Part shown: positions 35,075-43,500 of the stretch, in pieces
Position numbering within the stretch: the stretch's first letter is position 1
How the letters are laid out: every line of letters begins with the position of its first letter
Origin: Aplysia californica
Lineage: Eukaryota
Assembly (NCBI RefSeq): GCF_000002075.1
Contig: NW_004797276.1
Location: 1,522,673-1,581,540 of the forward strand
DNA: 58,868 nt
Direction: 5' to 3'
Position numbers and translations under genes: made by a program
Notes under the pieces: generated by a model
Databases searched by the model: none
What the model was told of the DNA's origin: nothing
Seen by the model: the letters and a program-made list of their open reading frames with translations, nothing else

Positions 35075-38000
35075 TCAAACTCGACTTAAGTTTGTTGTGC
35101 TGTAGATGTGTTCTTCAGAATTGTCATGAGCACGTGGGGTGGAGGCCTTGCCTTGAATTCTGTACGATGAAACTGATGATGCATTGGCATATGTGTTATC
35201 ATCATCATCTGCTTCCAAGATTTCTCCAAGCTTCCGAGCAACGGAGGCAATGGAGGGCCGAACTTCATTCTCTAGTGACCAACATGTCCGTAGCAAGTCG
35301 TAACTGTGGACAGATATTTGAATGCATTTCAAGTTTTTCATTGTTAGAATACTATGTACAAAGAAGTATGGGAAGGTAGGGGAATTCCACACCCCCACTT
35401 ACAGCCCTTAGAACCAACAGAAATCTGTTTGACATTCAGCTTTTATCATTTGCTTCTGTCTGCCATGTTTTATTTTTCAATTTAGCTTTAATTTCTCATA
35501 TGTCTGTCTTTTTATTTTCATTTTGGCATGTGTGCTCATGTGGGTGTGGAATTGCCCCACAATATTACATTTTTAATTAATTTGAAAAATGAAAGTATGG
35601 GGATGCTGATATTGTAGAATTCATATTATGTTTTGTTTCCTAACTTATCAGACCAAAAGTAAAACTATTGGGGAGGATGTGTCCTCTTTCTACATAAAGT
35701 AACATCGATAACACTTGTCTCACAATCCAATTGAAAAGTATGGTGTGGAATTCCCAGATAATTATAAGTTGCCTAGTTAAAACAATTCAACAAACATACC
35801 GGGTAGCAAAAATAGTATTTGCAAACCTCCCTAAAGTTGTTGGCAACTTTCATTTTAAAAACCTTGAAGTATATTAAGATAATGCAAAAGTGTTAAGGAA
35901 AATTAAGTGAATCTCCAAAAACCAAAGGGCACTCTACTCTGATATGCCGTAAAACCTCCACTAAAACAAAACAAAAAATATGAAGATGGCTTCCAATAAA
36001 AGTTTAGAAATACTTTTCGAGCCTTTGAAAAATAATGAGAAAAAAGAAAAGAAAAGAAAAAATACCTGTGAATCATTACAGCCTAACATCACTATTCTAT
36101 TGAACATGACGGAATGTGTGTTTTACTTACACATCATTAGAAAGAGTCTCAGGCTTTCCAAGGATGTAGCCCTGTAGAATATACTCTCTGACATCATCAG
36201 CTTCTGTCACCTCATGGAATGGTAAACACCCACGCGTCAGAAGTTCCCACACCAGGACAGCAAATGACCACTGAGGAGAGAATTCACACACTTCATGAGT
36301 TTCTTGGAACAGTATGAGTACCATGGAAGTTTATCTGGAAGAAAATACAGCATTACTATTGCAATGGCTTGTTCTACCTTCTGGCTGTAATCCTTTGAGC
36401 TCTTAAAAATTTGTCATTCATGCCTACAGCGTCTGAGCATCTGAGCCTCCTTAGATTTGACTGCTAGAACTAGATTTGCACACTACAACAAATTGTCGCC
36501 TATCTTTAGAACGGAGAAAGGTAGTAATCAGTAGTAAAGGTGAATTATTACACTTGCACTCACTACTCACTGGGCAACGTTTAAACACCATCTGAGTTAT
36601 CTTATCTCGGACATTAGATGAAAAGAATGCCATGGCTTTATATAACAACAGAAAAGACACTGAACATACAAATACAAGTTCAGTGTGAGGGACAGAAATG
36701 TCTGCATGAATGGCGTTGGAGAATGAAATCATCATCTTCCTGAAGCATAGGTTCTGACGCTTAAATTAGTTACACTTCACTGTTTGCTGTGTCTTTCTAC
36801 TCCAGCTCAACAGAGAAAGGAAATCAAAACACTGCTCTACCAAACCATGTTTGGGATTGTACACTGAAGTCACGGATCACTAAAACCTACCAATTGTATG
36901 GAAAATAGGAGATACTAAGCATGAATGAGTTCAAATAACACACTGTGGTATGAAGGGACAGATAATGCAGTTCTTTGAGAGCGTGTCCAGAGATATGTTC
37001 TACTCTCACAGAGTTATAGGTATCATCTTAAAGCTTGCTGATTTATCATGCTTTTGTTGAAAAAAGTACCCATCTATCTTCAATAGAAGTCAAGATATTC
37101 GCGATTGAAGGAAGTGGGGGTGGGGAAGGAGGGGTGTCACCTGGTTTTAGAGGTAAAATTAGCGAGAAAATGGTCGCCAAAGTTTGGCGACTTCCATAGC
37201 TTGAGAGTCCTTGTAAATGGAAAATTTACATTTTTTGTGTGCCAATGTATTTCAGTAAAAGCCGCATGTAAATGTGTTTTTAAGTGGGCATAAAAAGTTT
37301 TGAGTTAAAAACAAAAATTTGAGAAAAATTACGATATCTTCGATTTAATTTCATTATTATTTTATCGAGCGCCTGATTTCACCACGATGCTTCACATTTC
37401 TTGTTGCTATTTGCACTAGCCATAATAAATTTTACAATTGGAGAAAAAAAAAAGTGATAATACAGACTCCTGTCACCCCTTCTGGTAGCTGTCTATTTGT
37501 TCTGTCATTGTACATAAGACTTGAGACCTACCATGGAAGGCTGTACATTCTATAAACAACAACAATAAAACAAAAACAAAATACAGCCATTCAGCTTACC
37601 ACATCTGTTCTGCTGTCATAGTAACCATCACTGATGCTCTCTGGAGCCATCCATCGCAAGGGCAAATAGCGTTCTCTCTGATCATCATAGACATATTCAT
37701 CAGGGTAAAAGTCCCAGGAGAACGCTGCATCACCCAGCTTCACAACAGAAACGTCATCCAAGCTGAAATAATACCAAACACAAATTGATAAGTTCCAACT
37801 AGAAATAGTCATTGATATTTAGGGGAAAGTCATCTGTTCTAATACTGTAATACCATTAGCTTAAAGTTTCAATTTCAGCAAAACAAGCAGACACCAGTGA
37901 AAATCACATAAGACTGTGCGGTATCATGGTGAAATCAGGCACTCATCAAAATAATGAAATCGGAGAACCTGAATTTTTATTCTGCCCATGTAGCAATTTT

Positions 38001-40501
38001 CACCTCTCTCTTTGAAAACTTTTTTTTGGCTCAACACTTTTTATGTCCATTTGAAACCACATTTCTGTGTGGATTTTACTGAAAAATATTTACCAAAGGC
38101 TAAAAAAATATAAATTCGGAGTTTCCCAGGAAGCTCAAGCTTTGGAAGTCACCCAAATTTCGTGGCCTTTTTCTGGTTAATTTCACCTCTACTTCCTTCA
38201 TATGCAAATAGCTTGACTCATGTCCCTGATAGACAGATAGGTATTTTTTAAAATCAAAGCAAGACAAATGAACAAGTTTTAAAATGATACCAATAACTTC
38301 AGATGCCAAAAAATGCTCAGCACCTGATTTCACAATTGTTAAGAAACTGTAGACACTGTTCCTTTTTACTTTTTTCCACAGAAGAAAAGAAAAAGGGTTG
38401 TCCATTCAATACCGACTACAAGAGTACATTGAGAGACACAACAGCTGTCTAGGTCAAACAATAGCACATCCCTTTCTGTGCCACCTTACAATAACAATAA
38501 TTTGACTCATATAGTGAGGTCAAATATACATGGATTATGGCTGGTGCCTCTATAAATAAATCATTGTTGGTCAAGGTCAAGTGAGGTCACAATAATTTTG
38601 AATGAACTTCTTCCCAACTTACAAACAATTTCGGGCTGCCACATCTTTATGTGTAATGTCTTTAGAGGCCAGGAAATCAATTCCCTCTGCAACTTGTTGA
38701 CTGAAAGCAAGCAGCTGCCTCACACTGAATTCCTGTACGAAGAAAAAAAGAAAACAAGGGAAAGGAAATGAGTGGGGTTATGTTCCACAAGGTATCTCTA
38801 TGAATGAATGGTGTTAAGATCTGACATAAAGAAAGGTACTTCGAAATATTTCAAGTTATACAGAGAAATTATATGTGTGAACTTGTAGTCCGAAGAAATA
38901 AAGGTTTGACACATGGTCTCATATCTTTTAGAAATGTACAAAAAATGAATATCTTTACATAGAGGTATAAATGCGTGTCATCAGAAATTTAAAAAGGGAA
39001 TGATATTTCACCATGATGCAAAAACTATTTATAGAGTATGCTGAAAGATCTATTTTAGTCAATTTTTACCATCTGTAACGACATGTCCTCAATACATCGC
39101 CTGCAGAGCATGAGCTTTCTAGACTAGTCCCAATAAAAATATTTATCTAAAAATAGCTGAGTCACAATATGAATCTTACTCAAATGGTTATCATCTATAT
39201 AATTTTTGTCAAAAAAACATTAATTGTTTCATAAAGCATTCGCCTGCAAGCAAATTGATTTGTTTTTGTTTTCCATAAAGCAGCTGATGTTTAAAAATAC
39301 TTCTCACCAGTCAAAGAGACTTCTACAGCACTTACCTTATCAGTGTTTGAAATGACAGCTTTCAGTGTACCCTGAACCATATGAGGGTACAATATATGAA
39401 AACGTTGTTTGTCCACACCAATCCCATAGATACTGAGAACATGTGTATGGGTATAGCGACGTAACCTAAGACACTCGCTTAAGGCCTGGTTGGCCCAGAG
39501 AGGCAGAAGAGAGTCTGAAGAGAATAAAGTAATAAAGTTAATTTTTAAAAGGTAATACTAATAGTTTTGAAAACAAGGTTCAAAAGTATGTGATCATTCA
39601 CTGTATGGTCTGTACAAACAAAACTGGGTTATCACTCAGCACAAAAAGGATTTCTTCAATCCACCCATTTGTAATGAAAGGAACATAGAACTTGTGCAGA
39701 GAATTCTACAATATGATAAAATAGTTTCAAAGCCACACAGCAAACTCTAAATACTGCAACTTTTAAAAAACTGTTATACTTTGAGCAACCAAATTAGATT
39801 TATCGATACCTTGAGCAACTGGTTCTGTCAGACTTTTTATAGTCAGCTTCATCACAGGCTTCCCATTCTTTTGTATGGCTCCATCACACAGAATGGCTTG
39901 CTTCCCTGTGAGTTAGAAAGACCAAATATGTTTTTATTCTGTACAATGGCAATGGCCATAATGTCATAAATGTTGCAATGCCAATGGCTGTTACAGTATT
40001 TTTTTCAACAATAACTTACCAGTTGAAAAACTGATTACTTCAAGAGTATGTTAGTATTATGTGAAATGAGACCATGATAGTACAGACTATCAGTATTTCG
40101 GAGAAAAAACAGGAAAAAAATTTACTCAAATTTACTGCCAAAGTGATACACATGCAAATTGGAGACTGCATTATGGCAAAGAGATGAGAGTAAAAAATTA
40201 TGAGAGACTACTGAGGAGACCTGAATCTGGCACTGAACATATGGCACAGTAGTGTGCTCTATGAAGTTCTTACCTTTGAATATTGGATTACGTCCTAAAT
40301 TAAAATGTCCCCTTCCCACATAGCATAAGCTGACATCCTCTCTCAACCCTGGCTCTATATGGGGCAAGAAGTCCTCCATTAATACAGCATCCTCAGCACT
40401 GGAATTGACAATGCCCTTCTTTGGTTCCTTGATGACTGTTTCCATATGGATATTGCCATGAAAGCCGTTGGAAGTTGGTGGTTGGTCCATGACGCTGTTC
40501 A
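35075..40501 (-). CDS. Receptor exons 17-23: juxtamembrane region, tyrosine kinase-like domain with degenerate motifs, C-tail
   Basis: [12 protein letters not shown] (degenerate Gly loop), LTIKSL (beta3 Lys), LSEC (alphaC Glu), [97 protein letters not shown], tail TYANAS and HIYSTT, stop at 35075-35077. Confidence 0.92.
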
Positions 40502-43500
40502 CTGGAATGACAAACACAAACAAAATATACATATTAAAAAAATATCAAGCCTATCATAGAGAACATGTCACCTATACATTTCACTTTTTAGCTCCAGAGC
40601 CCTTCATACCATAATTTTGAGTGAATCATTTAAAATTGTTTTAAATATATGACACAAATAACTGAACAAAAAACTTTTCAAACTCAAGCAGAATCCTGAA
40701 CGTTCATCATCGGTCTGTGCACTGCTGCCTGTTTCTTTTGATGTCCCAATTAATAATCTATAGCTTCAAACTTTGACTCACATTCTGCGTAATCGTTCAT
40801 ACTACGAGGCTCAGAAGCGACCAAGTTCTTGTGATCCAAGTTGTCAAGTGTTGGGGGTGATTTCTTATTCCTCCTATACCGGCAGCAACAACAAATTATG
40901 ATGATGCCAATTACAATGAGAATCACAGCAGCAACACAGCTGATGATGATGATAAACCCAGTTGTCTCATAAAACTCCAGGTATTCCACGGTGCCAACAA
41001 CCCTTTCAATGTTCCCAATAGAAATCTGGGGACACAAAAAAAGAGGAAAGTCACACAGTCATAATAATATTAATGCATCTTTTAATTAGGTAAGTAAAGT
41101 TGAAAGATTCAACTTGTGAGCTCCATCAATCAAAGCCTCTTTCTAAACTACTTGGTCATAATTCTCAACTTTGTTGGATGATATGAAAAGATGCTTCCTC
41201 CTTTTCTCAAGGTGCACAAAGGCCAGTTAGTGTGTACTGCAGAAAAAAAATAGATATATACCTTTCTGTAAGAGGAAAAGTACTATCCTTTTAACACTGT
41301 AAACAAAAAGTATATAATGAAATGCTTAAGAGACCCATTATGGCTCTATAAACTTACACATATTCAACCTGGGTAACAAAACATCTCAACTTATTTGTGT
41401 ATAAAAGTTTGCAAAATTTAAAAAAAATAGAATCTACTTAAATTAGGGCGGAAGCCTTTTTTGTTCCAGCCTTACCTTTATTTCATGTGACCTTTTCCCA
41501 TTTGGAGCAGACTTAGGTGGTGAGCATTCTATCCCTGAGTTGGAAATACTCTTAATATCACAGTGTACAACACCAAGCAGCACTTTGTAGTTGTTGTCAT
41601 GGCAACCATTCAATAGACGTTTTCCCTGCAGAAGAAAATGCATTAAGCTTCAGAGACTTGAGAACATACCCCTTTGTATCTTTCCAGGAAACTAATTTTT
41701 ACCAAGGCACACATACTTTTTCAACCCATTTCTAGCAATCATACAATTTCAAAGGTGAACAATGGATGAGAATAAAATAAACACAATAATTAATGTAAAC
41801 TTGACTGGCAACAAGATAAAGTTTTAAAGTGTAGAAGCCAGTTGAGAACTTTGCTATATTATATTACTTATGTTAGTAATCCTTACAGCACCGGGTTATA
41901 TTTAGCCCTGACTTCCTTTAGGCCCAGTAATTCTTGAATCTTGGACTCCTCGGGCTCAGCTAGCACGTACTGACCAAGTCTGCAGATTTCTTTTGCCGAC
42001 ATTAAAAGAAACTTATACTGCTTTTGATAAAGTTTATAAACATAACATGTCTTCAGACAACTGGATAGACGACTAAAATACTCGACTATTTTTGAGGTTC
42101 ACAGCTCCCTGTAAGGGAAAGATATACAACTGGGCCAAAGCACTGTAAACTACTATGTTTTTAAAACAGTGAAAAAAAAAATTCATTTGCAATGTTCTGA
42201 TTCGTTTGGAATTCACTGAACAAAAAAGAAATTAGGAAAACAATTGTAAAATCAAAAACACATGGATTCTATAGCAATAGATGATAATTTAAAGAGGAAA
42301 CATTTTTATAAATCATGACTTACTGAAAGTGAGATTGTTGTCTCAAATGGATATTGAAACTTTATAGTTCCTTTGTAATCAAAGACTGGGTCGTCAACAA
42401 CTTCAAGGTTTCCGATGTTAGAAAATGACAGGCCATCAAAGACTGCTGTCATCTTATATTGATCACTTGGATTATTTGGTAAGGACAAATTTTTTAGATC
42501 TGGTGTTCCACAGATGACATCACTGTCAACATGTCTGCAGATCTGAAAAAAGAAAGAACAGAGGGAGAGAATGAACATTGATGGAAATCGTTATAAATTA
42601 TGGGAAACCAAAAGGCTGTTTTCACATACTTAACATGATATTTTGAGTACTCAACAAAAAATTAAAGAGAATACAATTATACATATACACTTTCCTTTTC
42701 CTTTAACTCATTCGCTACGTATTATTTTCGGCTTACGGGCGAATTTTTTTTTGGGAAGTCGAAATGAGATGATGACTAGTGCGCAGTTCAAAGGTCTTTG
42801 AGGCTACAAATTCAAATAAATATTAACATATTATACACCAAAATTTTTAATATGATTTGTAAAATATATCTGTAATGTTTATTTGTGCATGTTTCAACAT
42901 TTGTTCCTGTAAGAGGCGATTACGTAACACAATTTTGCTTGGATTCGGATAAAATTTGAAAATAAAAAATTTACCATCTTCGGTGAAACTCAAAAAATAT
43001 GTTTGCACCGAGTCAAATGATACATCCAAATAACCATAAATGATTATGGAGCTGTAAAATATTGAAAAATTTGTAGTCATTTATATACATTTCATAAAAT
43101 TTGCACATTTGGATTATGATAACCGACATTGAAAAAAAAAAATTTTTAATCTTAAAAAATGGACAAGATGCATTCACAAACAGAAAAAGAACACTCGTAT
43201 CGTATATGGAATTATTCAGAATTGCATTTAGAATAAACCTACACATGTCTTGAGTGGTACTTTCACAAAAAAATAGTGATTTTCTGGAGAAAAAAATAAT
43301 TTGACAATAGCACTGAAAAATATTGATTTCTCAATAACAGAGCAATGGCAATTTGGGCCCAATCGTATAAATATTCTAAAAAAGAGTCCTACATTTCTTC
43401 AGTGTGCAAAATAATGATATATTTTGTTGTGAAAAAGTAGTAAGACTGGCGTCTGGGCGATAACTTGAGCATCGCGATAAAACAAAGTCGCATAAATTTC

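Follow-up and report, generated by a model that had tools for sequence, protein, structure and literature searches.

The window analysed here is a stretch of 58,868 nucleotides from Aplysia californica (NCBI RefSeq assembly GCF_000002075.1, contig NW_004797276.1, positions 1,522,673 to 1,581,540 of the forward strand). It carries a multi-exon receptor gene on the minus strand, from 57118 to 35075, which encodes a candidate pseudokinase. The gene corresponds to LOC101856621 and to the database protein P0001 of 1397 amino acids (aa), and 23 of its exons are visible. Exon 1 (56646-57118; GC content 54%, observed/expected CpG ratio 0.84) contains the ATG, the signal peptide and the start of a usherin-type LamG-like head, which continues in exon 2 (55110-55245). 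The four exons at 53490-53424, 52824-52566, 51954-51827 and 50932-50801 encode the end of the LamG-like part and a laminin-N-like head. They are followed by four exons with laminin-EGF (LE) repeats (49543-49339, 48392-48250, 47844-47651 and 47321-47155), the last being a half repeat, and by five exons with an IPT/TIG region of the Met/plexin type (46363-46221, 44593-44411, 44083-43981, 42542-42324 and 41625-41476). The transmembrane exon (40782-41025) adds the transmembrane helix and a juxtamembrane segment with an NDY tyrosine, and the 3' untranslated region extends beyond 34500. Residues 204-237 of P0001 had no match in the readable part of the window and are probably located in the N stretch at 53816-54803. 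Two copies of a 107-base stretch, 99% identical, lie at 49648-49754 and 57651-57757, the second adjoining an N run; this is either a recent repeat or an assembly artefact.

The kinase region occupies seven exons. The interval 37600-40300, given for the kinase domain in a sequence-only reading of this DNA, covers only five of them. When joined, the seven exons read through without a stop and matched residues 1018-1397 of P0001 exactly, and AG acceptors and GT donors were found at all six introns between them. Kinase exon 1 (40274-40501) encodes a juxtamembrane helix and strand beta1 and ends within the invariant middle glycine of the P-loop (G1093); the intron at 40273-39906 splits this codon in the motif IFKGKQAIL at aa 1090. 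Exon 2 (39810-39905) contains GKQAIL, with the third glycine changed to Ala, and LTIK, with the Ala of VAIK changed to Thr and Lys1116 kept (39837-39835). The family insert with a Trp, the alphaC Glu1138 within ALSECL (39476-39474), the gatekeeper Tyr1167 and the hinge are in exon 3 (39336-39514), and the catalytic loop HKDVAARN (38651-38628) is in exon 4 (38623-38732). Exon 5 (37600-37762) encodes DAAFSWD with its Asp at 37731-37729, the kept Tyr1244 (equivalent to MET Y1234), a Val in place of the next Tyr, and WMAPE. A 14-residue stretch with the Met-type WELxTRG is found in exon 6 (36131-36270), and exon 7 (35075-35303) contains the tail with the YAN docking motif (Tyr1360, 35191-35189), the C-terminal LSRV and the stop. 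The motifs LTIK, HKD and DAA and the retained beta3 Lys, alphaC Glu, catalytic Asp and Asn and DFG Asp, as first described, were all present in the minus-strand sequence.

A decaying pseudogene or an artefact of the gene model would fit the observation that two polyA raw-read runs barely covered the kinase exons at 38959-42143. Against this stand the open frame, the canonical splice sites and contigs from two other runs, which showed the spliced joints 35303/36131, 36270/37600, 37762/38623, 38731/39335 and 40501/40782 and several upstream introns. At the other two kinase-exon joints the contig spacing was compatible with splicing, and one contig of 6062 bases contains pieces spanning 52824 to 34500. 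That the two contig runs are RNA is a guess made by the software, no run with the receptor stretch being recorded as such. The orthologue tree, which separates gastropods from bivalves, also argues against decay, and this explanation has a negligible probability. The intact frame with clean splice sites was thus borne out. A maintained rather than a decaying gene is also indicated by the kinase substitutions, which recur in 20 of 20 orthologues, and by the kinase C-lobe, which in every comparison among gastropods was conserved more strongly than any other region (identity to Aplysia of 52-77% in 11 gastropods vs 23-37% for the head).

The domain composition was analysed with Pfam in four proteins of the family. 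Laminin-EGF, IPT/TIG and tyrosine kinase domains were found, and no Sema or PSI match was obtained at E 0.1 in any of the four. TIG was matched at 4.6e-13 in two stretches ahead of the transmembrane helix, and the family profile of the IPT region matches MET and Met-LP rows. The LamG and laminin-N (LN) parts of the Aplysia protein are below Pfam detection, and their assignment rests on a head profile made from the region before the first LE repeat of 20 family sequences. This profile matched five usherins over most of its length with E values of 3e-32 to 5e-19, a protein of the annelid Owenia fusiformis at 4e-12, and laminins at 5e-4 or worse. The N-terminal order of usherin is LamG, LN and LE, as given in the accessible part of PMC7317166, and the receptor has the same order. 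It differs from usherin (USH2A) in having about five LE repeats instead of ten and in ending in IPT domains and a kinase; Pfam found in P0001 neither the LamG and FN3 run of usherin nor its short cytoplasmic tail. A separate usherin-like locus lies on another Aplysia contig. By these profile matches, the ectodomain has a usherin-derived head with LamG-like, laminin-N and laminin-EGF parts, followed by IPT domains and the transmembrane helix. With the usherin-like region in place of Sema and PSI, the receptor is, as far as its sequence tells, a Met-kinase paralogue and not Met proper, and binding of a ligand of the HGF/MSP type is unlikely without Sema. In the databases the orthologues go under differing names (HGF receptor-like, usherin, RYK-like or TXK-like).

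The kinase domain belongs to the Met family by sequence score and tree position. With an orthologue as the query, MET was matched at about 1e-52, RON at 7e-48 and RYK at 4e-42. Only a two-domain EGFR construct scored above MET, through summing, and MET was the best single-domain PDB match; in Foldseek, 47 of 47 among the matches listed were MET. The tree was calculated from 65 of about 200 kinase-bearing proteins after near-duplicates, fragments and most non-Met kinases had been dropped, RYK and AXL being absent. In this tree the 20 family rows formed one clade (100/100) with a long stem (1.2) inside the Met-family group (100/97 against five outgroups). The clade is divided into gastropods and bivalves, and two further rows fall on the bivalve side. 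Orthologues were found in heterobranch, caeno-, veti- and patellogastropods and in scallop, oyster, pearl oyster, ark, mussel, unionid and venerid/myid bivalves. Outside Mollusca, only the Owenia protein appeared in the best 150 of a representative search and among 72 listed matches of an Owenia query, and no cephalopod or chiton was seen there.

The HKD and D-x-A motifs, common to RYK, and the predicted structure described below, which ties RYK with MET, could also mean that the kinase domain was derived from RYK and inherited its dead state. The search scores and the Foldseek matches contradict this, and WELxTRG, the IPT region and the YxN tail are features of Met. In addition, a RYK-like exon set (WEMMTMG) exists in Aplysia apart from the receptor gene and is only 32% identical to exon 6 of the receptor. 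A RYK origin is therefore highly improbable. A WIF domain had no match in P0001, and the sole WIF match in the genome is on a different contig. The RYK-like kinase exons (L017/L010, G000:C1057) and the WIF exon (L016, G000:C2153) lie on separate contigs; most of the RYK-like locus reads N, and RYK was therefore kept outside the tree. The RYK-like exon ending in LLMEG and the receptor gene share an intron position, within the same Gly codon of the P-loop.

To compare individual sites, 20 gastropod and bivalve family rows were aligned with 33 canonical Met-family rows. In no family row was Gly1 or Gly3 of GxGxxG kept, nor the VAIK Ala, the Phe or Gly of DFG, the Arg at DFG+3 or the Y1235 equivalent, each of which was present in 32-33 of the 33 canonical rows. 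The alphaC Phe was also kept in none. A Tyr gatekeeper and a Phe at DFG+1 were found in 20 of 20, and so were the middle P-loop Gly, the beta3 Lys, the alphaC Glu, the His of the HRD motif, the catalytic Asp, the Arg, the Asn, the DFG Asp and the Y1234 equivalent. The loss of the Gly loop reported earlier therefore held for Gly1 and Gly3 and not for the invariant middle Gly, and the proposed check of motif conservation showed pocket changes common to all orthologues. HKD was present in 17 of the 20 rows. The change of the DVWSFG Gly to Ala, listed before among the degenerate motifs, is present as DVWSFA on the minus strand; it was rejected as a sign of inactivity because no more than 6 of the 20 orthologues have it and the PYK2 row of the outgroup has it as well. 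The MET numbering of the gatekeeper and P-loop positions is assumed by us, and the site identities themselves were taken from the alignment.

The columns that sandwich the adenine were variable, with T, Y, S, M, K or I at the VAIK Ala and L, I, V, R or M at the beta2 Val. Such freely varying columns are unlike those expected of a constrained ATP site. In a deep mutational scan of human MET, F1223, G1224, the P-loop glycines and Y1234/Y1235 were intolerant of substitution (PMC11398868, accessible part). Since the changes are shared by gastropods and bivalves, the ATP pocket appears from the alignment to be remodelled alike in both. The Lys of VAIK, the Asp of HRD and the Asp of DFG are kept in all 20 rows, and the three-residue rule for pseudokinases would call the receptor active; the same rule would call RYK and ROR active (PMC13259870, in the part available). 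Degeneration of the RYK/ROR/PTK7 type, in the P-loop, the HRD Arg and the DFG Phe and Gly, was found in the receptor. Human RYK has QxGxxG, AFVK, the Glu, HKD and DNA and an occluded ATP site (Table 2 of PMC13259870). Like RYK, PTK7 and ROR1/2, the receptor keeps K, E, HKD..N and the DFG Asp and has lost the DFG Phe, and like RYK it has also lost the DFG Gly and the first P-loop Gly. In contrast to RYK, it is Met-derived, lacks a WIF domain, has also lost the third P-loop Gly and carries YxN in its tail. Convergence is the probable cause of the resemblance. RYK, one of the analogues named from the sequence, thus turned out to be of the right class; ERBB3, another, is a poor motif match that loses the catalytic Asp and keeps DFG. 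The Met ancestry of the kinase, the usherin-derived head and the stronger changes of the ATP pocket, such as the Tyr gatekeeper and the lost Y1235 equivalent, had gone unrecognised in the sequence-only reading.

An AlphaFold model of residues 1059-1366 was calculated with a 20-row alignment that included four canonical Met-family rows. It had a pLDDT of 92 and an ordered activation loop (94-97). The model matched RYK (6TUA) with Z 35.3 and an rmsd of 2.0 over 281 aligned residues, tied with the best MET entry (Z 35.5, rmsd 2.2, 289 residues), and activated MET entries scored 31.8-32.3. As a control we used a hemichordate canonical Met-family kinase, where the activation loop had a pLDDT of 45-52 and RYK was absent from the best 50 matches (below 33.7, the best being 36.8). 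The match of the model to inactive MET structures with type II inhibitors was rejected as a sign of inactivity. The control ranks these structures first too, and for this reason only the RYK contrast is informative. The structural check suggested earlier thus gave a match to RYK at the level of the fold and against one control. A query of the ESM Atlas gave only generic kinase clusters.

Taken together, catalytic impairment of the receptor is the likely and best reading of the sequence, and from sequence and model we hold it quite probable that the kinase domain is catalytically dead. Several observations weigh against this. The K, E, D, N and D residues and the His, Arg and middle Gly do not vary in any of the 20 rows, and because only 28 of 290 columns are invariant these residues are under selection. 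HRD is found in 3 of the 20 rows (Babylonia, Patella and Mizuhopecten). The tolerances of MET may not transfer to a family whose domain is about 31% identical to it. Only one control, itself 50% identical to MET, underlies the RYK contrast, and the comparison of models is at the fold level, with pocket side chains and occlusion out of view. Finally, conserved tail tyrosines require a kinase, and self-phosphorylation would be the simplest source.

The alternative is an atypical active or weakly active kinase, whose pocket would still bind ATP and which would phosphorylate its own tail. In such a kinase the DFG+1 Phe and the gatekeeper Tyr would rebuild the regulatory spine, and the new invariant aromatics could replace the DFG Phe. 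The invariant catalytic residues, the single activation-loop Tyr and the tail YxN are consistent with this, and HER3, EphB6 and EphA10 retain ATP binding (PMC13259870, same part). On the other hand, five positions that are fixed in MET (Gly1, Gly3, DFG Phe, DFG Gly and Y1235) are all changed and the adenine-pocket columns vary, and RYK has the same five catalytic residues and yet is occluded. We regard residual activity as unlikely, but as the most serious of the alternatives.

The reading that we favour, and consider probable, is that of a conserved molluscan Met-family receptor with a usherin-derived head and a RYK-class pseudokinase that acts as a co-receptor and is phosphorylated in trans on its tail tyrosine. 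The ATP site would be closed by the Tyr gatekeeper, the bulkier residue at the VAIK Ala and the loss of two P-loop glycines and of the DFG Phe and Gly. As in RYK, an ordered fold resembling an autoinhibited one would then be held in place by the retained Lys, Glu, Asp, Asn and Asp together with the one remaining Tyr of the activation loop. For the laminin-type head, a ligand in the matrix or on a membrane is suggested by analogy with the LE repeats of usherin, which bind collagen IV and fibronectin in vitro (PMC7317166, accessible part). Phosphorylation of the tail YxN would come from an active partner, for which canonical Met or a Src-family kinase is the simplest candidate, and the phosphorylated motif would recruit an SH2 adaptor of the Grb2 type. 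The docking site of MET carries YxN as its motif for the SH2 domain of Grb2. In the family, YxN was found in 17 of the 20 rows, that is in 17 of the 18 that extend past the kinase, in both classes. A predicted dead kinase combined with a conserved docking tyrosine points to phosphorylation in trans, as for HER3.

The receptor might instead be a matrix-binding scaffold or decoy that signals without tyrosine phosphorylation, through a PDZ-type tail or cleavage, and has no partnership with Met. The C terminus S-x-V/I of Aplysia, Lymnaea, Elysia and Bradybaena, which we take to be a possible PDZ-binding motif, is in line with this, and usherin acts via matrix binding and a PDZ motif (PMC7317166, in the part available). 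Only heterobranch gastropods have the S-x-V end, while YxN occurs in both classes, and this makes the scaffold very unlikely. The LSRV of Aplysia (35075-35090, minus strand) is shared with Lymnaea and Elysia and not with caenogastropods or bivalves.

With MET and RON, including the canonical Aplysia Met XP_012942361, the receptor shares the kinase ancestry, the order of IPT region, transmembrane helix and kinase, WELxTRG and the tail YxN. It differs in the usherin-type head without Sema or PSI and in the altered P-loop, VAIK, gatekeeper, DFG and YY; of the two activation-loop tyrosines of Met, the first is kept in 20 of 20 rows and the second in none. XP_012942361 is distinct from the receptor: it has Sema-PSI-IPT, and its GKGNFG, VAVK, HRD, DFG and YY are intact (PMC6374515, accessible part). 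The 'Acali Met' of that paper has the same length of 1397 aa and was rejected as the receptor described here. In its accessible part, this 2019 survey of Sema-domain proteins gives only Met and Met-LP1 for Aplysia, and the receptor gene is absent. Met-LP, with a plexin ectodomain, is likewise a lophotrochozoan Met paralogue with an exchanged ectodomain (same source), but its head is another one and the mollusc Met-LP rows compared here lose the catalytic Asp instead. The proposed logic is that of HER3/ERBB3, with a dead kinase, a phosphotyrosine tail and an active paralogue in the same genome, although HER3 lacks the catalytic Asp, has an intact DFG and binds ATP (PMC13259870, in part).

A Met-LP-like clade (100/99) was also seen in the tree, consisting of P0128 (Argonauta), P0144 (Mactra), P0176 (Solemya), P0108 and P0158. 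A plexin ectodomain is present in four of the five, P0176 being a fragment; the catalytic Asp is changed to Asn in all five (HHN, HGN, HRN) and the alphaC Glu is lost in four. By these motifs, molluscs have in this clade a second Met-family pseudokinase, of a HER3-like kind; the kinase of Aplysia Met-LP1 was outside the rows compared.

Two other features of the window were noted. A dispersed intronic repeat, with copies that are 91% identical, is present at 38020-38086, 48144-48210 and in nearby intronic stretches, and draws many partial reads from elsewhere in the transcriptome. On the plus strand, an exon at 21751-22050 matches the CANIN domain (PF14816, E 2.6e-6, above the cut-off) and belongs to a gene convergent with the receptor gene, which is presumably SLF2/FAM178-like.

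The Owenia protein CAH1784899.1 (P0066) has the same domain order (LamG3, Laminin_N, LE, IPT, kinase) and the same junction of half LE repeat and IPT as the receptor. Unlike the receptor, it has GEGYFG, VAVK, a Leu gatekeeper, DFG and YY, together with an odd catalytic loop, HGDLSAKN. Its head grouped with the mollusc heads (97/94) on a long branch, in a tree where only vertebrate usherins were sampled and three laminin rows were skipped. Its kinase fell outside the family in the free tree, grouping with the family was not rejected by the AU test (p 0.31), and the match of its IPT region to the family profile did not exceed that of ordinary Met rows. A single fusion in an ancestor is a plausible reading of these sequences. 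More tentatively, and with considerable doubt, a spiralian ancestor may have fused the usherin 5' end to the IPT-transmembrane-kinase half of Met. The Owenia kinase would have stayed near-canonical and molluscs would have fixed the dead, RYK-like version before gastropods and bivalves split, giving a three-member Met system, one active and two dead (Met-LP, without its catalytic Asp in molluscs, being the other), in which the usherin-headed receptor couples basement-membrane sensing to Met signalling in a HER3-like manner. Owenia has at least three receptors with IPT and a Met kinase, P0066, P0078 and P0081, with usherin-type, ephrin-receptor-like Cys-rich and trefoil heads, respectively, which suggests that ectodomains were swapped more than once onto the IPT-kinase module.

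Both receptor pseudokinases and Met paralogues with shuffled domains are already known. The combination of a usherin head with a Met kinase of RYK-like degeneration, here across two mollusc classes, was not found described in a search of full-text literature; closed-access papers were outside its scope, and the S1 table of the oyster kinome (PMC4883820) may list an orthologue as Met. The eight human receptor pseudokinases include no relative of Met (PMC13259870, accessible part). If our reading is true, a Met-family pseudokinase has been maintained across two mollusc classes and has arrived independently at the RYK pattern, with all catalytic residues kept while the ATP site is closed. The usherin-Met chimera is likewise a receptor architecture for which the search gave no description. 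Canonical Met and the Owenia protein would serve as natural comparators, and the question why such pseudokinases keep K/E/D/N/D would become testable.

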